DNA of 56,744 bases from Rhodospirillales bacterium (GCA_040904505.1 JBBDTH010000018.1:1-56744); one strand, 5' to 3'; positions 1,703 to 54,280 are shown, counted from the stretch's first letter. Made by a program: numbers and translations. The notes: a model not told the origin generated them from the sequence alone.

Positions 1703-2506
1703 TCAGGGTAGCGATTTCGCGCATCGAAAGCCAATGTTACGGTGTCCCGCCCGAGGATTCCGGGATACGAACTCGCCGCGATAGGTCGTGCCGAGGTATT
1801 TCGGCGAATCGTCATGGCCGCCGCCGCGCGTGGCCCTGGCGGCCATGCTGTCGGGAGACTCGCGGCCATCGTCGGCACGATACGGATATTTTCGATAGAG
1901 ACTGCTGACCCACTCATGGGTATTGCCCGCCATATCGAGCACGCCCTCGGGCGTCGCGCCGCGCGGTAAGGAACCGACCGGGATCGTCATACCCCAGCCG
2001 GCCCCGTAACGCGCCCGGGTCTTATCCGGCGTTTCGTCGCCCCACGGATAAATCCTTCCTTCCTTTCCTCTCGCCGCAAACTCCCATTCGGCTTCCGTCG
2101 GAAGCCGCTTTCCCGCCCATTTGCAGTAATTTCTCGCCCCGAACCAACTCGCCTCGACAACCGGATGGTCTTCAAAGCTGTCATCTGCCTGAAATTTATT
2201 TTCGATACGATGAATGCGCGCGTCGTCATCGTCCCAATCGTAAAGGCGATACATCCGTTCATGGGTTTTACCGCCGGTGGCATTGAGAAACGATGCAAAC
2301 GCTCGATTCGTAACGGGCGTTTTATCGAGCAGAAAGTTTTCGACGGAAACCCGATGGGCGGGTTTTTCATCGTCCGGCCCGTCACCCCGCCCCATCGTGA
2401 ATGTCCCGCCGGGAATTTTAACCATCGCACTCGTATCGGCGGCCAAGGTTCCGAAAGACGCGAAGGCAAGCACGGAGCCGATGGCAATGAAAACACACCC
2501 CTTCAT
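1703..2506 (-). CDS. formylglycine-generating enzyme (FGE-sulfatase/SUMF1) domain protein with signal peptide
   Basis: Signal-like MKGCVFIAIGSVLAFASFGTLAAD, then FGE-domain hallmarks HPVVEASWFGARNYCKWAGKRLPTEAEWEFAARG and GNTHEWV. Start placed at the internal ATG 2504-2506 rather than at the ORF-track start. Confidence 0.85.
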   Translation of the reverse strand: MKGCVFIAIGSVLAFASFGTLAADTSAMVKIPGGTFTMGRGDGPDDEKPAHRVSVENFLLDKTPVTNRAFASFLNATGGKTHERMYRLYDWDDDDARIHRIENKFQADDSFEDHPVVEASWFGARNYCKWAGKRLPTEAEWEFAARGKEGRIYPWGDETPDKTRARYGAGWGMTIPVGSLPRGATPEGVLDMAGNTHEWVSSLYRKYPYRADDGRESPDSMAARATRGGGHDDSPKYLGTTYRGEFVSRNPRAGHRNIGFRCAKSLP

Positions 2507-2553: not shown

Positions 2554-4284
2554 TCAGATCAGGCACACATCGCTGGCGCATCCTAGGTCTTTATCCGCTT
2601 CCACCAAAAGGCTCTGCCAGGATCCGGGCAGGTCGACCTGCCGGCCGATCACGCGGCGCGAGTTGCCCTGAAACCAGAAATTATGCGTCGGATGATCGCC
2701 GCCGGCGACCAAGAGGATTAGGTTTTCCGGCTTTCTGCAGATAGGCCACGGGTCAAGCGAGGCCGTTTTGATCGTATCGGGATGGGTGTCCGCCTCGATC
2801 CATTGCCTTAAGCCCGTCCTGATTACGTCGGCCTGCGGGATGGCGGAATGCTCCCAAAGATGGTTTCTGATCTTTTCCTTGGACCAACCGAGCTTTGCGA
2901 GCTGGTTCGCCGAGATCGGGGATAACAGCAATCCGCCGGGTGTGCCGTGTTCGTAACCCCGTATATAGTGAATGTTGGGAACCTTGAGGTAATCCACGAG
3001 TTTTTCGATGCTTTCGCGGGCTTCCTGCTCGAGGGTCTCCTTGCCGGTACCGCGGCGCATGATATTCGTGGCGCCGGTTGCGACAAAAACGGAAACGGCA
3101 TTGGTGTTCTGCTTGAAACCGTGCCGTTCCGTCGCGAAAGGCAGCCAGCCTTCGGGCAGCCTCTCCTCGTCTTCCGCGAACACGGCGTTGGTATAACGCA
3201 TCTGCCCGAAAACGGCCATCGTGCCGACCCCGGGAAGGGCGCCGCCGACATTTTGCAACAGAAACCGAATGGCCCGGCCGATGCTGGCGCCCGCCGGCCG
3301 TTGCGGATCGGGGCCTAATAAACCGAAACCGGAATTCAGGCGGACTTCTTTCGCGATCGGACCATTAACGACGACAACGGGAAAAGTGCTGCCCGACGTC
3401 GCTTGCCATTGATCGTGAACGAACTCCGGATCGAGGATCGCATCCAATGCGGCCAACAGAACGGGAAAATACTCCGGTCGGCCTCCGGCCATGGCCAAGG
3501 CGACGGCGGCAGTCTCGACCGTTGCGATACCGCCGCGCGGCATGATCTTGCCGAGCGTTTCGTATCGCAGTCTGTCCGAACCCCGGAGAATCCAATCGAC
3601 TCGTGTCATGTCGGGCGGGATGACCGGCAAGCCGTCTCCCCACAGGTTCGTCAGGAACAGGTTGTTGATTTGCCGGGCCGCATCTTCGTAGTCGTCGCTT
3701 GTGACCGTCATCATCGGCGCGTTGCGCATGCCGGTTTTCTTGGCCGCGGGCTGCCATCGCGTCAGGCCGTCGTAAAACTCCTCGATACGATCGGCTACGG
3801 GAGTCAGGTCGCTTTCGACCAAAAATAAATCGATGGGAAACGTGACCATGGCCGCGTCTTGATCGAATCCCAGACCCGAAACGGCATTACGGACGACGCC
3901 GACGAAATCTTCGCGCGTGAGAATGACGGTGGGAATGCCCTCGGCTTCGATTTTCGCGGCAGCACGGCCGCATGCCGTTGCGCAACGGCCTCAGGAGGCG
4001 TTGCCGATAACGATTGCGTCAACCTTCAGGTCTTTTGCGCGTCGAATCGTTTTATCTTTTTCGATTTCCAAATTACCGGTCGGAAATTCGGTGTAGGGAA
4101 CGATCTCGACGTCCTTGAAATTTTTCGCCATGAAATCGGCGATCAGAGGAAGCGTTCGATGCGCTTGCCATTCGTCATTCGAAACGAACCCGATTCTTTT
4201 GCCGTTTAGAGAATCAAGCCGGGGCGCGTGCAGGCAAAGCACTTCGGTCGCGCCGCTGGGGTCGAAAACGTCGATTGTATGCAT
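2554..4284 (-). CDS. candidate selenoprotein: UGSC-like N-terminal redox domain (Sec at TGA 3991-3993) continuous with a ~430-aa uncharacterised domain
   Basis: ORFs 3991..4290 and 2554..3849 are in the same frame (4290-3849=441). The 47 codons between them have no stop. Context is VDAIVIGNAS-U-GRCATAC. GGAG lies 7 nt before ATG 4284, and there is no SD before the internal ATG 3849. Sec machinery is present in the window. Confidence 0.6.
3974..3989 (-). promoter_or_regulatory. candidate SECIS-type stem-loop immediately 3' of the UGA at 3991-3993
   Basis: mRNA GCCGUU-GCGC-AACGGC forms a perfect 6-bp hairpin starting 2 nt after the UGA. An alternative outer pairing is GGCCG (3986-3990) with CGGCC (3966-3970). 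Confidence 0.35.
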
Positions 4285-4371
4285 GTGCAAGCTCCGGTTC
4301 TTATGCTTAACGACAGGGGCGACAGAGTAGCGCCGCCGCTAGTGCGGGACAAGGAACGCCTGAGGGGTTAA

Positions 4372-4446
4372 TGGTGCCGCCGGGGCGAATCGAACGCCCG
4401 ACCCCACCCTTACCAAGGGTGTGCTCTACCCCTGAGCTACGGCGGC
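4372..4446 (-). tRNA. tRNA-Thr (anticodon GGU)
   Basis: Reverse complement reads GCCGCCGTAGCTCAGGGGTAGAGCACACCCTTGGTAAGGGTGGGGTCGGGCGTTCGATTCGCCCCGGCGGCACCA. It has cloverleaf arms, GTTCGATTC in the T-arm and an encoded CCA. Confidence 0.9.
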
Positions 4447-15431: not shown

Positions 15432-16226
15432 ATGACCGCCGAGCGCGTTAAAGTCTTCTGGCAGCCTGGCTGAACGAGCTGTCTTAAAACCAAGGAATTC
15501 TTGGCGGCCCGTGGGGTCGATTTCGAATCCGTTAATGTTCAGGACGATCCGGAAGGATTAGCCGAGTTACGCAGACTCGGGGCGCGGTCCGTGCCGGTCG
15601 TATCCGTGGGCGATAAGTGGACGTTCACGCAGACCTTCGACGATGTCTGCAAAATGTTGGGCATCGAATACGACGATACCCCGCAGCTTTCCCCCGAAGA
15701 CCTTGCCCGCAAAACGGATATGATTCTTGCGGCCGCCGAACGATTCGTCCGGCAGCTGCCGCCCGATCAGTTCGAGCAGAATGTCCGTACCCGCAAGCGG
15801 GCCTACAAGAATCTCTGTTATCATATTTTCCGGCTGACCGAGTCGTTCCTGGATGTCGTGATCGACGGCGGCGGCAAGGAGAAGTTTACCCGGGATCATA
15901 TGAATCCCCTGTGCCCGGCTCATCTGAAGTCGTTCGAGGATATCGCCGATTTCGGCGCGTCCGTGCGCAAACGGTTCAACGATTGGTGGGCGAATAAAGG
16001 GGACGTGTCCTTCGATCGGATCGTGCCGACGTATTACGGGGACAAGAAGATGCACTATGTCTTCGAGCGGTTGACGTGGCACCCGGGCCAGCATGTCCGC
16101 CAGCTTATGATGCTCCTGCGCGAGGACTTCAAAATCGAGCCCAAGCAACCCTTACAGGATTCGGATTTCGCGGGTTTGCCCATTCCCGAAAAGGCCTGGG
16201 ACGATGAGCCCGGGATGACGAAGTAA
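15432..16226 (+). CDS. glutaredoxin-fold / DinB-like fusion, selenoprotein candidate (Sec14, motif U-T-S-C)
   Basis: GGGAGA SD then ATG 15432. MTAERVKVFWQPG-U-TSCLKTKEFLAARGVDFESVNV...SVPVV is a Grx/NrdH-type fold with TGA 15471-15473 at the first redox position. The frame is continuous with ORF 15501..16226. The C-terminal half has a DinB-like His pattern (CYHIF, WHPGQH). Confidence 0.72.
15490..15504 (+). promoter_or_regulatory. weak candidate SECIS stem-loop
   Basis: CCAAG-GAAUU-CUUGG lies 16 nt after the UGA. It can be extended by GCUG (15478-15481) pairing with CGGC (15505-15508) across an 8-nt bulge. Confidence 0.25.
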
Positions 16227-16260: not shown

Positions 16261-16355
16261 TGGCGGAAGAGAGTGGGAGTCGAACCCACCAGGAACGCCT
16301 AACGCCCCTGAACGGATTTGAAGTCCGCCCGAGCCACCGGACCCGATTCCCTTCC
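16261..16355 (-). tRNA. selC: tRNA-Sec (anticodon UCA)
   Basis: 95-nt reverse complement GGAAGGGAATCGGGTCCGGTGGCTCGGGCGGACTTCAAATCCGTTCAGGGGCGTTAGGCGTTCCTGGTGGGTTCGACTCCCACTCTCTTCCGCCA. It has the GGAAG start, a long acceptor stem, a long variable arm and a CTTCAAA anticodon loop, as in E. coli selC. Confidence 0.93.
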
Positions 16356-16398
16356 AGGAAGAAGCAACTTAAAGCCGAACGCCCGTTCGGACAATGAC

Positions 16399-16428
16399 GA
16401 TCTGGGCCGATCTGGGCCGATGCGGGCC
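16399..16428. repeat. three tandem copies of a 10-nt unit GATCTGGGCC (third copy degenerate)
   Basis: gatctgggcc gatctgggcc gatgcgggcc, located between typA and selC. Confidence 0.7.
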
Positions 16429-16462
16429 GACCCGACTCGCGCCGTTTGTTGGGGGGCGGGCG

Positions 16463-18286
16463 TTACGCGGCCCGCGACGCGCGTTTGCGTTCGTGTTCCT
16501 TGAGGAACTTCTTGCGGATGCGGATCGATTTCGGCGTGACCTCGACCAGCTCGTCGCCGTCGATGAATTCAAGCGCATATTCGAGGGTCGCGCGGATCGG
16601 CGGCGTCAACAGGATGTTTTCGTCGCTGCCGGCGGCGCGAATATTCGTCAGTTGTTTTGTCTTGAGCGGATTCACGACCAGATCGTTGTCGCGCGAATGG
16701 ATCCCGATCACCATGCCTTCGTACACATCAAGGCCCGGATTGATGAACAGATCGCCCCGCTCCTGAAGATTGAAGAGGGCGTAGGCAATCGATTTTCCGG
16801 TCGCCATCGAAACGAGGACGCCGTTGCGGCGCTCGTTGATGCTGCCGGTCACCCGGGGGCCGTAGTGATCGAAGGTATGGTACATCAAGCCGGTCCCGGA
16901 CGTGGTCGTGAGGAAATCCGAGCGAAAACCGATCAAGCTGCGGCTCGGGATAAGATAATCGAGCCGGACCCGTCCCTTGCCGTCCGGCGTCATGTCACGC
17001 AGTTCGCCGCGCCGCTCGCCGAGCTTTTCCATGACGGCGCCCTGATGCTGTTCCTCGACGTCGATCGTCAACGTTTCCCACGGTTCGCAGATTTCCCCGT
17101 CGATCGTCTTCAAAATCACTTCGGGGCGCGAAATGGCCAACTCGTAGCCTTCCCGCCGCATGTTTTCGATCAGGATCGACAGGTGCAGCTCGCCGCGTCC
17201 GGAAACCTTGAATTTATCCTGGCTGTCCGTCGGTTCGACCCGCAGGGCGACGTTGTGCAGTAATTCCCGATCGAGGCGGTCGCGAAGATTGCGGCTGGTG
17301 ACGAATTTTCCTTCGCGTCCGGCGAACGGCGAGTCGTTAACCTGAAACGTCATGGAAATCGTCGGTTCGTCGACGACCAGGGGCGGCAGCGCCTCGACGG
17401 CATCCGGGTGGCACAGCGTATCGGAGATGTGCAGTTCCTCGAGGCCGGTGAACGCGATGATCTGACCGGCATGGGCTTCTTTTTGTTCGATCTTCTCGAG
17501 CCCGTGGAATCCGAGAATTTGCAACATGCGGCCCTGCCGGGTGTTGCCGTCGGCGCCGATTACGGTGATGGAGCTGTTGGCCTTGATCCTGCCCCGGCGA
17601 ACGCGGCCGATGCCGATGACGCCGACATAGCTGGAATAGTCCAGCGCGCTGACCTGCAATTGAAACGGGCCGTTTAAATCCACGTCCGGCGGCGGCACGT
17701 GATCGATAACGGTTTGGAACAGTTCGGTCATGTCTTCGCGCGGCGAATCAAGGCTTCGCGAGGCCCACCCTTGGGTCGCGGATGCGTAAATTACCGGGAA
17801 ATCGAGTTGTTCGTCGGTCGCGCCCAAGCGCACGAACAGATCGAATGTCTGGTCGACGGCCCAATCGGGCCGCGCGCCCTGCCGGTCGACTTTGTTGATG
17901 ACCAGAATAGGGCGCAGGCCTTGAGCAAGCGCCTTGCTCGTCACGAACCGGGTTTGCGGCATCGGGCCTTCGACGGCGTCCACAAGCAGCAGGACCGAGT
18001 CCACCATGGACAAAACCCGCTCGACCTCGCCGCCGAAGTCGGCGTGGCCCGGCGTGTCGACGATATTGATGCGCCAGTCCTTCCAGTGAATCGACGTATT
18101 TTTCGATAAAATCGTGATTCCGCGCTCGCGCTCGAGATCGTTCGAATCCATCACCCGTTCCGACGCGTCGCCGAACTTCGTGAGCGTGCCGGATTGGCGG
18201 AGCAACTGATCGACGAGCGTGGTTTTGCCATGATCCACGTGGGCGATAATGGCAATGTTGCGAAGGCCGCTTATTTTATCGTTCAT
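16463..18286 (-). CDS. typA: translational GTPase TypA/BipA
   Basis: 607 aa. [22 protein letters not shown] plus full-length BipA-like sequence. Confidence 0.96.
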
Positions 18287-18390
18287 TTAAGGTGTTTACC
18301 TGCGTTGGAAAGCGGTCATGTGTCACCTTTTCCCCCGGATTGCAAGGGGGCTTTCGGCAAAGCTACGGTCAAAGCCTACGGAATTGGAGG

Positions 18391-20325
18391 TTAATCATCC
18401 GTTAGGGGGCGGAAAACCTCGTCCGCGGGGCGGAGGATGCCGCGCAGGTCGCCTTGGCGTTTGGTCAGCTTGACCGTATCGAAGTATTCCAGGAGTTCGA
18501 TGGTCAGGTTGCGCCCGATCCCGGAACGGTCGCGGAACGCGGCGGCGTTGAACAGGCCATCCGGGCTGTCCGTGGCCAGTTGCTCGGCGATGGCGCCAAG
18601 CCGGTGCAAGGCGTCGGGCGTGAAATACCGGTTCTTGGCAACGGGTTGCACGACGCCCCGCCGAACGCTCCGGTCCAGAAACCGCTGAAGTTGATCCGGT
18701 CTCATGCCGAGGTCTGCGGCGAGTTCGCGCACGGTCGGCGGGCGCAGCCCCGCTTTGTCCAGCAGCGGCTTGACCCGCTTCCAAAGCGCGGCTTCCTGGG
18801 GCGGTATGGACGGTCGGTGTCCGGCAAGGCCGATAAGCTCGCTCCGGCGCGTTAGGCTCTTATCGTCGATAAGGCGTTCCACGGCGGCGCCGAGCAAGCC
18901 GTCGATTAACCGCAGGGACAGGCGTTGTGTTACTTGGACTACTGTCAGGCCCGGGCTTTCCGGCCGTTCGCCATGCCATTTCTTCAAGGTATCGAGAAGT
19001 TCCGTTTGCAGCCGGTCCCATAAACGGGGAGCAAGGGCGAACCGCTGCGTTCCGGCCGTTAGAACCGTTATCGAGCCGCTGTCGCGAAGCGCGGTATATT
19101 CCGATTCCGTTAAATTCCGGGCCCGGGCGAATTGAGTAAGGTCGATGCCGTTCGGCGATGATTCCGCCAGTTCCGATAAGGCAAGCGTGGGGTTGTCTTG
19201 GTCCAGGGCAACAAGCTGGAGGAGGCGTTCCGGCTTCGCGCGTCCCCGTTTCGGCGCGAAGGGATCGAGCACCCAGCCGCCGCCGATCGTCCGCCGGGCC
19301 GATTGGTCGCGCAGGATGAAGCGGTCGCCGTAAAAAACGTTCGTTTTATCGTCCAGGACGAGTTGCGCAATGCCGGTATCGCCGGGTTCGATCGCGCGCG
19401 ATTCCAAGATGGCAAGGCGTCCCGGCAGGTCGGCGGCGCCGACGTGCACGTGTACAGGCATCCAATGCCTGAGGGGGCGCGGCTCTCGGATGAGGGCGCG
19501 GACCTTGACGTCGATCCGGTCCGTCGGCACGAAGGCAGGCTCCGCAACGATCCAGCTTCCCCGTTGAACGGCCGATTTCTTGAGATCGCGGCCGGTCAGG
19601 TTCAGGGCGCATCGTTGCCCCGCCGATCCGCGCTCGGATTCCCGGTTTTGGGCGTGCAGACTCCGCACGCGGGCGGGGATGCCCGCCGGCGCGACGATGA
19701 TCTGATCGCCCGTTTGCACCGTTCCGGAGAATACGGACCCGGTGACCACGAGTCCGGAGCCCGAAAGCGTAAAGCACCGATCGACGGCCAGCCGAAAGTT
19801 GCCGTGCGTTCGGCGCCGTTCCAGGTGATGGGCGACATCGTGAAGATGCCGGTAGAGGACGTCGATGCCGTCGCCCGTCAGTGCGGAAACGCGGAAGCTC
19901 GGCGCATTTTCAAGCGCCGTTCCACTCAGAAGCCCGGAGATTTGCACGTCGACCTCATCGAGGCGGGCTTGATCGACCCGGTCGCTTTTCGTAATCGCGA
20001 TCGCGCCGTTTCGCACATTGAGCAGATTAAGGATGTCCAGGTGTTCCACCGTTTGCGGCATGATGCCGTCATCGGCGGCGACGACGAAAAGGACGAAATC
20101 GATGTTGGTAACGCCGGCCAGCATATTGCGAACGAACCGTTCGTGACCCGGTACATCGACAAATCCGAGAGTCTCGTCGTCCCCGAAAGCCTTATAAGCG
20201 AAACCGATGTCGATTGTCAGGCCTCGGCGTTTCTCGTCGGGCAGGCGGTCGGTGTCGATTCCTGTTAACGCCTTAACCAGAAGTGTCTTGCCGTGATCGA
20301 TGTGGCCGGCTGTCGCGATAATCAA
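18391..20325 (-). CDS. selB: selenocysteine-specific translation elongation factor
   Basis: 644 aa. [41 protein letters not shown] plus a long winged-helix C-terminal extension. The TTG start overlaps the selA stop (TTGA). Confidence 0.93.
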
Positions 20326-21761
20326 GATGCTGCCTCGTCCGCCAATACGAGCTTTTCGAGTTGGGTGCTAAATCCTTGTTCGTCTTCCAAGCACCGAAGA
20401 TCGAGCCAAAAGGCGTTGTCCTGAAGCCGCCCGATGACGGGTCGTGGCAGGCTTCGAAAGGCGTCCGCAATGCGCCGTGCCGCCGTACCGGCTTTGCGCT
20501 TGCCGGCTTTCGGTCGGATGACGAGCGCCGCGCTGGGGATGCGGGTCAGGGGTAAGGAGCCGCTACCGGTTTGGCTGTCGCAGGGCTCGACCGTCACCTC
20601 GGCCACAGGGGCCAAGCATTTTTGCAAGTTCGGCAAGAGGCGTTGCGCCGATTGCTCGACCGAGTCGCGGGAGCGGGCCAGCAGACGTAATGTCGGCACG
20701 CGTTCGAGCAGTTTTTCCGGATTGGCATAGAGTTGCAGAACGGCGGCGAGGGCGGCGATCGTCACCTTGTCGAGCCGCATGGCCCGTTTCATGGGATTGC
20801 GTTTGATTTTGCCGATCAGATCGGCGCGCCCGACGATGATGCCGGCCTGCGGACCGCCCAAAAGTTTATCCCCGCTGAACGTTACCAAATCGGCGCCTTG
20901 GGCAAGGGTTTCCTGGGCGGTCGGTTCGTGGGGCAGGCCGTAGGGGGCCAAATCGACGAGGGTGCCGCTGCCGAGATCCACCATAAACGGCAAGCCGTGC
21001 CGATGGGCGAGATCGGCCAGCTCTTTTTCCGGAACCGTCTTGGTGAATCCTTGCACGGTGTAGTTGCTGGTGTGCACTTTCATCAAAAGCGCGGTGCGCT
21101 TGCCGATGGCGCTTTCGAAGTCTTTCAGGTGCGTGCGATTGGTCGTACCGACCTCGACGAGTTTGCAGCCGGCCCGGCTCATGATGTCGGGCATGCGGAA
21201 CGATCCGCCGATTTCGATGAGCTCTCCCCGGGAAACGGGAATCTCCTTTTTGAGCCCGAAGGTGTTCAAACACAGCAGGACGGCGGCGGCATTATTGTTC
21301 ACGACGGTCGCCGCTTCGGCTCCCGTAAGACGGCAGAGCAGCGTATCGAGATGGCTATCCCTATCGCCGCGCTTGCCTGTCGCCAAGTCGTATTCGAGAT
21401 TACCGGCCTCCCGGGCGGCATCCGTCATGGCGGTAATGGCTTCCTCGGGCAACAAGGCCCGGCCCAAATTCGTATGCAGGACCGTTCCGGTGAGATTGTA
21501 GACGGCCCGCAGCGGCGGTTGCACCCACGAGTCAAGAAGACCGGCGACCAGCGGGACGACGGTTTCATCGTCGATGGGTTTGGCAATTCTCGGCCGCTCG
21601 GCCGCGAAAGAATCGCGAAGCTTTGCTAACACGGTTCGCACGGCGTCCGCCGTCATCGGGCGCCCGTATCTCTCCGTCATGGCAACGATGGGCGGGAGGT
21701 TCAGGACGTGATCGACGGAGGGAATAGAGGCTAGAACGGTATCAGAAGAAGGCATCGGCAC
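20322..21761 (-). CDS. selA: L-seryl-tRNA(Sec) selenium transferase
   Basis: 479 aa. NLTGTVLHTNLGRALL and the PLP-lysine context FSGDKLLGGPQAGIIVGR. Confidence 0.95.
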   Translation of the reverse strand: MPMPSSDTVLASIPSVDHVLNLPPIVAMTERYGRPMTADAVRTVLAKLRDSFAAERPRIAKPIDDETVVPLVAGLLDSWVQPPLRAVYNLTGTVLHTNLGRALLPEEAITAMTDAAREAGNLEYDLATGKRGDRDSHLDTLLCRLTGAEAATVVNNNAAAVLLCLNTFGLKKEIPVSRGELIEIGGSFRMPDIMSRAGCKLVEVGTTNRTHLKDFESAIGKRTALLMKVHTSNYTVQGFTKTVPEKELADLAHRHGLPFMVDLGSGTLVDLAPYGLPHEPTAQETLAQGADLVTFSGDKLLGGPQAGIIVGRADLIGKIKRNPMKRAMRLDKVTIAALAAVLQLYANPEKLLERVPTLRLLARSRDSVEQSAQRLLPNLQKCLAPVAEVTVEPCDSQTGSGSLPLTRIPSAALVIRPKAGKRKAGTAARRIADAFRSLPRPVIGRLQDNAFWLDLRCLEDEQGFSTQLEKLVLADEAAS

Positions 21762-23025: not shown

Positions 23026-24381
23026 CTATACTTGTAGTAACGGCCGCAATTCGGTGACGTCCGCGATGCTTTCGAGGTCTAATATCCGATCGACCAGCCG
23101 GGCAGTTTTCTCGGAGCCGATGACGGGGCCCATCAGGCCGACGGCCTTGGCGGCGACCTCGGCGCGGTCCATGGGATTGGCGGCGCTGCCTCGGACGGCT
23201 TTGGTGTGATGGCTTAACACGCGCCCGTCGAGCGTCGTGATGTCGACGATGGCCTGGCGCGGCGGGTGAGCCGTTCTCAAGTCTTTGTCGGGAATCAGTT
23301 CGACCTTGCGGCGCAAAGCGAGGATATCGGAATCCTCCATGCGGGCATCATTGTGAGTGTTTTCGAAAGTCAAGTGGCGGTCGATCAGAAACAACGCGGT
23401 CAAGTGCTGCAGGCACATGTTCGGCATCAGGCTGTTGTCCGAGATTGCATAACGGCCCTCGGGCAGCGTGATGACGATCTTTTCCACCTGATCCGGTCGG
23501 ATGTCGTGTTCTCTTATCAGGATTTCGATCGCATCCAAGGGCGATTGCGCCGGCATGCCGACACACCACTTCTTGAGATTCGCATCCAGAATATCGAAGC
23601 GTTTTCCCAGCTCTTTCGTGATTTCCTCCGGGCGGGGATCGTTCGTGAAGACATCCAAATAGCCGTGGGGGCCGGACAGAACGTCATCGACGCCGCTGAG
23701 GCCGGCGGCGGCGAACAGCGCGGCCTGTACGGCGTTCCGCGCCGGCATGCCGCCGAACACGAATGCCTTTTCCACGTGTTCGTTATCCCGGTGCCAACAC
23801 GGGACCCCCGATGCCTGCTGCATCGCGTATGAAATCAGGTAACGGGCCTGCCGGTCATCGATTTTTAAGAGCGAGCCGCAGGCCGCCGCGGCGCCGAATT
23901 GCGCCCCCGTACATGTGGCGTGGCGGGCATCGTTGAAGAGCACGTCCGGACCGAGGGCGAGATTGAAGCGCGCGCCGATGTCATAGCCTAAGGCAACGGC
24001 CTCAATCAGCGCCCGGCCCGTGCATTGTCCGCGTTCGGCGACGGCCAACGCCGCCGGAACGATCACGCATCCCGGATGGAAACGCGCACGTTGGTGGGTA
24101 TCGTCGGTTTCGTCGGCATGGGCGAGGGTACCGTTGACTTGGGCCGCGTTGATCGCCGTGGTGACATACCGGGCGGCGGCAACCGTGGCTTCGGCGGAAC
24201 CGCCTTGAGTGCTCATGAACTCGATCGCCAAACGGCCGGGTTTCAGAGCGGCGCCCGAGATCATGGCGGCTACCGTGTCGAGAATATGAAGTTTCGCTTT
24301 ATCGATAACGTCGCGCGGCAGGTCCCGTGCGTGCGTCAAGGCCATGTAGGCGCTGAGCTCGGCCATTAAAGGCGATATCAT
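23026..24381 (-). CDS. MmgE/PrpD family protein (2-methylcitrate dehydratase-like)
   Basis: 451 aa. Family-typical N-terminus (LPRDVIDKAKLHILDTVAAMISGA) and HADETDD / FHPG motifs. Confidence 0.9.
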   Translation of the reverse strand: MISPLMAELSAYMALTHARDLPRDVIDKAKLHILDTVAAMISGAALKPGRLAIEFMSTQGGSAEATVAAARYVTTAINAAQVNGTLAHADETDDTHQRARFHPGCVIVPAALAVAERGQCTGRALIEAVALGYDIGARFNLALGPDVLFNDARHATCTGAQFGAAAACGSLLKIDDRQARYLISYAMQQASGVPCWHRDNEHVEKAFVFGGMPARNAVQAALFAAAGLSGVDDVLSGPHGYLDVFTNDPRPEEITKELGKRFDILDANLKKWCVGMPAQSPLDAIEILIREHDIRPDQVEKIVITLPEGRYAISDNSLMPNMCLQHLTALFLIDRHLTFENTHNDARMEDSDILALRRKVELIPDKDLRTAHPPRQAIVDITTLDGRVLSHHTKAVRGSAANPMDRAEVAAKAVGLMGPVIGSEKTARLVDRILDLESIADVTELRPLLQV

Positions 24382-52552: not shown

Positions 52553-54280
52553 ATGAAAGAATTATATCAACGCCTATTCAGCCATCCGACAATCGCAACG
52601 GAGATCATTGTCGCCTCCTTATTCGCGAACATTCTGGCATTGGCGTCGTCCCTGTACGTTATCCAGGTTCTGAACCGCTATGTTTCTCACGGCGTGAATT
52701 CAACGCTTGTGACGCTGACGTCGGGCGTTCTGATCGCCGTGGTCATGGAATTCTTCTTTCGGCAAATAAGAATGCGCCTTGCCCAAGGCGTCAGCATGGG
52801 ACCGGATCAAAAGGCGGCGATTAGCGGGTTTCATATCTTAACCCAGGCAAAACCGGCCGCCTTGCAGCGTATCCCGGAAGGCATTCGCAGAGAGATCATC
52901 AATGGCGCCACGGCCATAGAAACCGCCTATTCGCCGTCCAACATCAATGTCGTCGTGGACGTTCCTTTCGCGCTGCTGTTCGTCGGCGTGTTGTTTCTCT
53001 TGAGTCCCCTGATTGCGTGGATCGTGATAATTTTTCTGGTCGGCGTATTTGTCTTCGGTGCCTTTATGGCGGCGTCACTGCGCAGCGATACGGATTCTCT
53101 GATTGAGGCGTCGGGCGGGGCAAGCGCCCTCGTCAGCACGGCCAACCGGGAGATCGAAACCGTCAGGGCGTTTAACGCCGGCGCTTTTTTGCGCCGGGCC
53201 TGGGAAGAACAATTGCAAAAGACGCAACGCCTTCGCCGGCATCTCGCGATGCGCCAGGGATTTATTCAGTCGATGACGCAGTCCGCGACGGCGTTGATGA
53301 GCGTTGCGGTTATCGCGGTCGGTGCCACCCTGGTCGTGGAGGGAAAATTGGATGTCGGCGCCATGATCGGCGCGAATATTCTCGCGGTGCGGGCCCTGCA
53401 ACCCGTATCGCGGTTTTCTCAATTGGGGGAAAGTTTCGCGAAGGCGCGGCGGTCGTTGGCCCTGCTTGCGGAATTTTCGCGCATTCCGTTGGAGCCGTCG
53501 TCCGGTTCCGCGAAGACCGATTACCGCGGCGCCGTGGAATTGCGGGATGTGGCGTTTATATATCCCGGAAGCAACACGCCGTTGTTCGAGTCGTTGTCGT
53601 TAAAGTTGCCGCCCGGAGCAATTTTGGTCGTCAACGGTTTGAACGGCACGGGCAAAACAACGTTGGCGCGCCTGCTGATCGGTTTGCTCGATCCGTCGCG
53701 GGGGCACGTCCTGGCGGATGGTTTGGATCTTCGTCAGGTGACGCCGGAATGGTGGCGTCGTCAGGTTATCTATCTGCCGCAGGAACCGTCCTTTTTGAAT
53801 GCGACGATCGAGCAAAACATTCGAGTCACGAATCCCGACATTGATAATGCCGGCTTGAATCGCGTTATCGATCTCGCCGGATTGCGGCGGTTCCTGGATG
53901 AAAGCGAGAAGGGGTTCGAGACGCCGATCTCCCTGGATGGCCGTCAGCTTTCCCTCGGCATCCGACGCCGCTTGGCGTTGGCGAGAGCCTTGTCCACGGC
54001 CGGGCGTTTGGCGGTTTTGGACGAACCGACGGAAGGACTCGACAAGGAAGGTTGTGCCGCCGTCTATAGCGTCTTGAACGAACTGGCCCGCCGTGGCCAT
54101 ACGATCGTTGTCATTTCACATGACCCCAACATCCTCAAAGGCGCGCATGCGGTCGTCGACCTCACGGAAAAACCCGTGCCGAAAGTGACGATAGTTTCGA
54201 AGGGGTCGGCCGTTTTGGATGTCGGTCATGATGCATCGCCCGGGGAGGCTCCGCCGGTCCCGGGGAAGGCGGCGCAATGA
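52553..54280 (+). CDS. type I secretion system permease/ATPase (ABC, no C39 peptidase domain)
   Basis: 575 aa. N-terminal 6-TM domain, Walker A GLNGTGKTT, signature LSLGIRRRLALARAL and Walker B LAVLDEPTEGLD. Confidence 0.92.
   Translation: MKELYQRLFSHPTIATEIIVASLFANILALASSLYVIQVLNRYVSHGVNSTLVTLTSGVLIAVVMEFFFRQIRMRLAQGVSMGPDQKAAISGFHILTQAKPAALQRIPEGIRREIINGATAIETAYSPSNINVVVDVPFALLFVGVLFLLSPLIAWIVIIFLVGVFVFGAFMAASLRSDTDSLIEASGGASALVSTANREIETVRAFNAGAFLRRAWEEQLQKTQRLRRHLAMRQGFIQSMTQSATALMSVAVIAVGATLVVEGKLDVGAMIGANILAVRALQPVSRFSQLGESFAKARRSLALLAEFSRIPLEPSSGSAKTDYRGAVELRDVAFIYPGSNTPLFESLSLKLPPGAILVVNGLNGTGKTTLARLLIGLLDPSRGHVLADGLDLRQVTPEWWRRQVIYLPQEPSFLNATIEQNIRVTNPDIDNAGLNRVIDLAGLRRFLDESEKGFETPISLDGRQLSLGIRRRLALARALSTAGRLAVLDEPTEGLDKEGCAAVYSVLNELARRGHTIVVISHDPNILKGAHAVVDLTEKPVPKVTIVSKGSAVLDVGHDASPGEAPPVPGKAAQ

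Follow-up and report, generated by a model that had tools for sequence, protein, structure and literature searches.

The question raised by this locus is whether an in-frame UGA codon ends a short protein or is read as selenocysteine (Sec) within a long one. The codon, at 3993..3991, lies on the minus strand of a 56,744-nucleotide stretch of DNA from a Rhodospirillales bacterium (GCA_040904505.1 JBBDTH010000018.1:1-56744), here called the window, and belongs to a candidate UGSC-family selenoprotein gene at 2554..4284. From the ATG at 4284..4282, 97 sense codons lead to the TGA, which makes the recoded position residue 98 of 576. An upstream open reading frame (ORF) is listed at 99 amino acids (3991..4290) because its start was taken as the TTG at 4290. 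The next 47 codons (3990..3850), referred to as the bridge, are in frame and open, and join the TGA to the ATG at 3849, which is the first codon of a 431-residue ORF (2554..3849). The complete frame would comprise 576 codons including Sec-98, followed by the stop TGA at 2556..2554, and translation across the internal TGA gives VDAIVIGNAS-U-GRCATACGRAAAKIEAEGIPTVILT, with the motif U98-G-R-C101. Read from the sequence, a Shine-Dalgarno element, GGAG, is present at 4292..4295 with a 7-nt spacer to ATG 4284, and inspection of the region upstream of ATG 3849 revealed no sequence of this kind. A preliminary description of the window had reported both the single frame and the difference between the two ATG codons; all its coordinates were verified, as were its readings at the two start sites.

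The conceptual product was searched with U replaced by C. The Pfam UGSC profile (PF24696) matches residues 6-152, thus across the TGA, with an E-value of 7e-18 and 65.8 bits against a cutoff of 25, covering profile positions 2-148 of 172; the UGSC-like layout of the redox domain noticed earlier is borne out by this match. More than 2,000 relatives came from a search that covered 5.8 billion proteins. More than 100 homologues of 573-576 amino acids carry PF24696 and align over 99-100% of the query with 51-59% identity. They share with the window protein both termini, an MHxxEVFDPSG start and a C-x-I end. The nearest relatives, at 61-77% identity, are just 431-455 amino acids long and lack the N-terminus. 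At the residue-98 column every one of the 106 aligned full-length homologues has cysteine, and the same holds for residue 101. The mean identity to these 106 proteins is 44.5% for residues 1-97, 63.4% for residues 99-145 and 54.7% for the 431-residue ORF, so that no part of the protein is better conserved than the 47 bridging codons.

A genome scan with one genome per species gave 307 relatives, and the counts that follow cover the best 80 loci. At all 80 species-level loci, and in three tandem copies in addition, the residue-98 column holds a TGA. The loci belong to metagenome-assembled genomes (MAGs) of Alphaproteobacteria/Rhodospirillaceae, to Burkholderiales, Syntrophales and Rokubacteria, and to Lambdaproteobacteria. 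L001/L002, from an NCBI MAG, and L003 have the same organization as the window: a 97-residue ORF with a weak PF24696 match, the in-frame TGA, and then an ORF of 431 or 447 residues. The short close relatives are therefore best read as split annotations of the same gene. Tandem paralogues were seen in three Rhodospirillaceae MAG loci, L035 (8289, 10082), L036 (8289, 10082) and L075 (8286, 10041); the two copies are about 1.8 kb apart, and every copy has the in-frame TGA and the downstream hairpin discussed below. Elsewhere in the window no paralogue of the UGSC gene was found; the 575-residue ORF at 52553..54280, for example, is not one.

These observations bear directly on the proposal, made in the preliminary description, that the UGA encodes Sec in a single protein of 576 residues. 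That proposal was left to depend on whether Cys homologues align across the TGA, whether the bridge is conserved and whether the two halves are fused elsewhere. The homologues do align across the codon, the bridge is conserved, and the halves are fused in the full-length homologues. The Cys column, the TGA column, the conserved bridge and the fused homologues therefore favour Sec, and comparison of the sequences indicates that the locus is very probably one gene, with UGA-98 read as Sec, for a two-domain UGSC-family protein.

Recoding of a bacterial UGA involves a selenocysteine insertion sequence (SECIS), for which the model derived from fdhF is a hairpin shortly downstream of the UGA whose loop contains a G-U. 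The preliminary description had pointed to a palindrome, GCCGTTGCGCAACGGC (3974..3989, minus strand), starting 2 nt after the TGA. It is indeed present at that place, with a folding energy of -6.9 kcal/mol (z = -1.2). As a SECIS candidate it is ruled out, since none of the 73 other aligned sequences has it and its energy falls short of significance; it is specific to the window and lies outside the conserved element, which is the next hairpin (3972..3955). The stem of this hairpin starts 18 nt past the UGA. It consists of UGCGGC (3972..3967), an apical loop CGUGCU with a G-U (3966..3961) and GCCGCG (3960..3955), and it is the sole structure returned by RNAalifold for 74 distinct sequences. Substitutions in its stem among these sequences convert G-C pairs to G-U and nothing else, and G-U-compatible changes are tolerated even when they alter the protein, for example Ala to Val (GUC), found 10 times.

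Since the hairpin also encodes a conserved peptide, C-G-R-A-A-A, synonymous sites were examined in 82 Sec-form genes, at the 136 codon columns whose amino acid is conserved and four-fold degenerate. Among all 136 columns the third position has its lowest entropy at codons 106 (GGC in 80 of 82), 107 (CGU in 78 of 82) and 109 (GCC in 68 of 72), with values of 0.17-0.35 bits; the next lowest value is 0.71 and the median 1.40. The Ala, Thr, Gly and Pro codons flanking the hairpin vary freely. A further cysteine of the region, C105, occurs in 81 of the 82 Sec forms; Cys forms do not conserve it and often have Leu instead. Its fixation in the Sec forms is attributed to its codon, UGC, which is part of the SECIS stem. 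The hairpin is gone from three diverged Cys-form genes (L085-L087). These comparisons make the hairpin at 3972..3955 the likely SECIS. It resembles the E. coli fdhF-type element in lying within the coding sequence shortly 3' of the UGA, in its apical G-U and in having a SelB gene nearby; it differs in its unrelated sequence, its stem of 5-6 bp and its overlap with the conserved peptide.

One Cys-form gene deserves separate mention. At L084 (8001..9731, encoding P0003) the Sec column holds TGC, the SECIS hairpin is intact, and transposase genes lie around the gene. The protein is 88% identical to that of a Sec-form locus, L004. The retained hairpin and this high identity suggest a recent replacement of Sec by Cys.

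The window itself encodes much of the machinery for Sec incorporation, in a compact locus on the minus strand (16261..21761). SelA, the selenocysteine synthase (20322..21761; Pfam SelA, E 4e-163), overlaps by 4 nt with SelB, the Sec-specific elongation factor (18391..20325; Pfam GTP_EFTU, Beta-barrel_SelB and SelB-wing_3). A BipA/TypA GTPase gene (16463..18286) lies between selB and the tRNA-Sec gene selC (16261..16355), which has the anticodon UCA and was identified by ARAGORN and by Rfam RF01852 at 77 bits. SelA, SelB and tRNA-Sec are encoded 12-17 kb from the UGSC gene; their presence at about 12 kb, noticed in the preliminary description, was confirmed with Pfam, ARAGORN and Rfam.

How the window protein relates to what is known of the family can now be considered. 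UGSC-containing proteins were reported from an Olavius symbiont metagenome (PMC1976440) and form a major family in Global Ocean Sampling (GOS) samples, with 255 Sec and 21 Cys sequences (PMC2398784). A fusion of UGSC with a domain called Unknown_1, which may be the present C-terminal domain, was reported in 2008 (PMC2398784, Fig. S1A). The two cases are alike in that UGSC is joined to a conserved, functionally uncharacterised domain and that stand-alone copies of the extra domain occur. In the papers found, the function of the UGSC family is still given as unknown. With that family (PF24696; NF041046) the window protein shares the N-terminal domain, the U/C-G-x-C motif after a beta-strand, and the occurrence of Cys homologues beside dominant Sec forms; it differs in its motif, which is U-G-R-C and not U-G-S-C. 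One 573-residue homologue carries the UniRef name 'UGSC family (seleno)protein'. On NF041046, which has a cutoff of 125 bits, the window protein (42.5 bits) and its close homologues P0003 (49.5) and P0088 (47.7; a Cys form from Variovorax sp. Sphag1AA) all fail, and P0208, a distant fused protein of 560 residues, passes with 136 bits. The low score of the window protein places it in a diverged branch of the family.

A full-length profile was searched with HMMER over 1.84 billion cluster representatives (50% identity clusters) and matched 4,894 clusters at E <= 1e-3, of which 968 at E <= 1e-30. Many representatives of 430-470 amino acids start at profile positions 100-125, just past the Sec column, as would be expected if they are truncated Sec forms. 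Several others match only from about profile position 205 onwards, so that stand-alone copies of the C-terminal domain exist. Twenty-one distant relatives, from subfamilies 25-32% identical, were aligned; the C-terminal domain is found in all of them and PF24696 in most, and the distant subfamilies with PF24696 have a literal C-G-S-C at the Sec column. Thus the fusion of UGSC with the C-terminal domain is evidently the normal architecture of the full-length relatives examined. The earlier view that UGSC proteins are short and that the fusion is unusual does not hold, since the full-length relatives examined, from a family that numbers about 4,900 clusters, have both domains. Two further variants were encountered among the relatives. 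P0167 (717 amino acids) lacks the UGSC domain and apparently contains the C-terminal domain twice. N-terminal extensions with SRRSFF and SRRRFL, resembling twin-arginine signal peptides, occur in P0214 and P0238, and some distant subfamilies may therefore be periplasmic.

Structural models give some indication of what the two domains could do. The AlphaFold2 model of P0003, the full-length Cys homologue with 59% identity to the window protein, has a predicted local distance difference test (pLDDT) score of 91.3 and a predicted template modelling (pTM) score of 0.91. The UGSC domain (residues 6-152; 3829..4269, minus strand; PF24696) is modelled with alternating strands and helices, in a Rossmann/flavodoxin-like manner. 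Strand 90-96 precedes the Sec column and helix 99-114 follows it, which puts Sec at the N-terminus of the helix and C101 in its first turn. Foldseek comparison of the P0003 model with the PDB returned the N-terminal domain of dehydroquinate synthase, the flavodoxin-like domain of flavorubredoxin and RCK, all for the N-terminal domain only, and there was no thioredoxin fold among the best 50 matches. The thioredoxin-like fold proposed in the literature is therefore unsupported by the model, which suggests that the Sec domain is Rossmann/flavodoxin-like rather than thioredoxin-like. With the thioredoxin-fold UxxC/CxxU proteins (Trx-like, Prx-like, DsbA-like and SelW-like) the window protein has in common a UxxC at the N-terminus of a helix right after a beta-strand; the differences are its alternating strand/helix order and its large extra C-terminal domain.

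The C-terminal domain comprises about 390 residues (approximately 185-576; 2557..3732, minus strand) and has no assigned family. It has no match in Pfam or NCBIfam, and a profile search of the PDB gave only a spurious 12.7-bit match. A model of the window's own 431-residue ORF has a pLDDT of 85. The best Foldseek match of the domain in the PDB is the alpha subunit of class I fumarate hydratase, with an E-value of 6.8e-3, a probability of 0.51 and a template modelling (TM) score of 0.22, which is too weak to be used. Seven residues, D217, T225, T255, R337, N345, E371 and E373, do not vary even among relatives of 25-32% identity, and this set looks like a small-molecule active site. C574 is invariant within the subfamily of the window protein and lies in the flexible, low-confidence C-terminal tail.

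In view of the above, a course of events can be outlined, of which the insertion of Sec is very probable and the redox part tentative. During translation SelB-GTP carrying Sec-tRNA(Sec) would bind the mRNA hairpin UGCGGC-CGUGCU-GCCGCG past UGA-98, as the comparative evidence suggests, and Sec would be inserted in place of termination. In the folded protein the N-terminal alpha/beta domain would present U98-x-x-C101 at the N-terminus of a helix, and would be followed by the C-terminal 400 residues or so, a catalytic-looking domain found in every full-length relative examined. U98 and C101 could then cycle between the selenolate/thiol and selenenylsulfide states, supplying redox chemistry to the C-terminal domain, where a small and probably carboxylate-bearing substrate would be held by the invariant Asp, Thr, Arg, Asn and Glu residues. 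In the subfamily of the window protein, C574 on its flexible tail could serve as a resolving or shuttle residue. We propose such a U98/C101 redox centre serving a substrate of the C-terminal domain, with C574 as possible resolving residue, as a tentative reading of the conserved positions. More doubtful is a broader picture, in which the C-terminal domain would represent an enzyme fold without solved relatives and would form, with the UxxC domain, a large and mostly Sec-using redox family (about 4,900 clusters) acting on an imported solute resembling an organic acid or amino acid, in Alpha- and Betaproteobacteria from aquatic and other environmental metagenomes.

Several observations count against this interpretation, some against the recoding and others against the redox role. 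The SECIS hairpin shows no compensatory covariation; its stem is near-invariant, and shuffled alignments equal the observed values. The folding energies of the hairpins tested are no better than those of shuffled sequences (z = 0.36, -0.5, -1.2 and 0.0), and as z-scores near 0 were obtained in this GC-rich coding region, comparative evidence was used instead. A selD gene was not found among the window ORFs scanned. No operon partner is conserved across clades in the 86 loci compared, and the redox role of U98 and C101 is deduced from the position of the UxxC motif only.

The non-significant folding energies would also suit a TGA that is a true stop, leaving either two proteins, a 97-residue fragment and a 431-residue product starting at ATG 3849, or a pseudogene inactivated by a nonsense mutation. 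That gene callers annotate the relatives as two ORFs and that an ATG is present at 3849 could be taken in the same sense. However, a stop would have to occur at one and the same column, opposite an invariant Cys, in 80 of 80 species-level genomes. It would interrupt a complete Pfam domain and leave as non-coding the most conserved codons of the gene, those between the TGA and an ATG that lacks a ribosome-binding site, and the conservation of the hairpin at synonymous sites and the nearby Sec machinery would have no place in it. We consider termination at this codon most improbable.

If Sec is inserted, as we favour, its chemistry could still differ from a dithiol-type relay. U98 might be the direct nucleophile on a carbon or heteroatom of the substrate, in a reductive cleavage of the GrdB/PrdB type. 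Residues 79-125 weakly match Pfam Gly_reductase (E 0.035) and residues 69-121 NCBIfam GrdF (E 0.11), and transporters for solutes are often found near the genes of the family (SNF, amino-acid ABC, LIV, TctC and TRAP). Both matches are far under their cutoffs, at 13 versus 22.2 bits for PF09338 and 11 versus 800 bits for NF040794 (GrdF), and the latter falls in the N-terminal quarter of its profile (positions 62-116 of 435). In GrdB-type proteins the Sec is located much nearer the C-terminus, which argues against this type of chemistry in the window protein. There is also no match to PF07355 (GRDB) and no GrdA-, GrdE- or PrdA-like partner in the neighbourhoods. The likeness to GrdB, GrdF and PrdB thus consists of a UxxC (PrdB is listed with this motif in PMC2398784, Table 2), an alpha/beta context and small-molecule substrates; the differences are the missing partner subunits and the hosts, which are aerobic or facultative Proteobacteria and not Stickland fermenters. 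Homology to GrdB/PrdB was rejected, the profile matches all being below threshold, and a direct nucleophilic role of U98 appears unlikely. Still less probable is that U98-x-x-C101-x-x-x-C105 forms a site for metal, metalloid or Fe-S cluster binding and that the protein acts in sensing or detoxification instead of as a redox enzyme. The near-constant C105 of the Sec forms would fit such a site, as would the occurrence of Fe-S enzymes, a class I fumarate hydratase and CyuA, among the weak Foldseek matches to the C-terminal domain. However, C105 is not kept in the Cys forms and its fixation in the Sec forms is explained by the SECIS stem, and none of the Foldseek matches is significant (probability at most 0.51, TM about 0.2).

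The genomic context would be in keeping with a part in the metabolism of small solutes. The recurrent neighbours over the 86 loci are TctC, CoA-transferase III, SDR, TauD, GMC oxidoreductase and MmgE/PrpD, which are typical of catabolic islands and are non-diagnostic. In the window the UGSC gene follows a tRNA-Thr gene (4372..4446, minus strand) and is divergent from the EPSP synthase gene. Between the UGSC gene and an SNF symporter gene lies a gene for a secreted protein of the FGE-sulfatase family (1703..2506, minus strand; PF03781, E 9e-56). L001 is syntenic in having the EPSP synthase, UGSC and SNF genes in that order, and is without the FGE-sulfatase gene. A MmgE/PrpD gene is present in the window at 23026..24381, and others recur near members of the family. 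One of these is found at L088 (821..9678), where the gene of P0208 belongs to an apparent operon; an NMT1/SsuA-type ABC transporter and an 86-residue ORF precede it, and two PGA_cap (CapA-like) genes and then MmgE/PrpD come after it.

A second candidate selenoprotein gene was noticed on the plus strand at 15432..16226, ending 35 nt before the tRNA-Sec gene. It starts with an ATG at about 15432 after an AGGGAG ribosome-binding site and encodes MTAERVKVFWQPG, an in-frame TGA at 15471..15473 and then TSCLKTKEFLAARGVDFESV. The arrangement is a glutaredoxin-like U-x-x-C, and PF00462 matches the part after the TGA with an E-value of 1.6e-9. The approximately 170 additional C-terminal residues have no Pfam match.

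The gene in the window is a further member of the known and widespread UGSC family and has the known architecture. Public records divide this gene and those most closely related to it into two ORFs each; these should be merged into single Sec-containing proteins, and the conserved hairpin provides a family-specific SECIS signature that could be used to find and correct such split genes. To what was known of the family the present analysis adds that the large C-terminal domain is integral to it, that this domain has no convincing solved structural relative, and that the Sec domain is modelled as Rossmann/flavodoxin-like and not as thioredoxin-like. None of these three points is specific to the window, and they narrow the approach to the function of the family.

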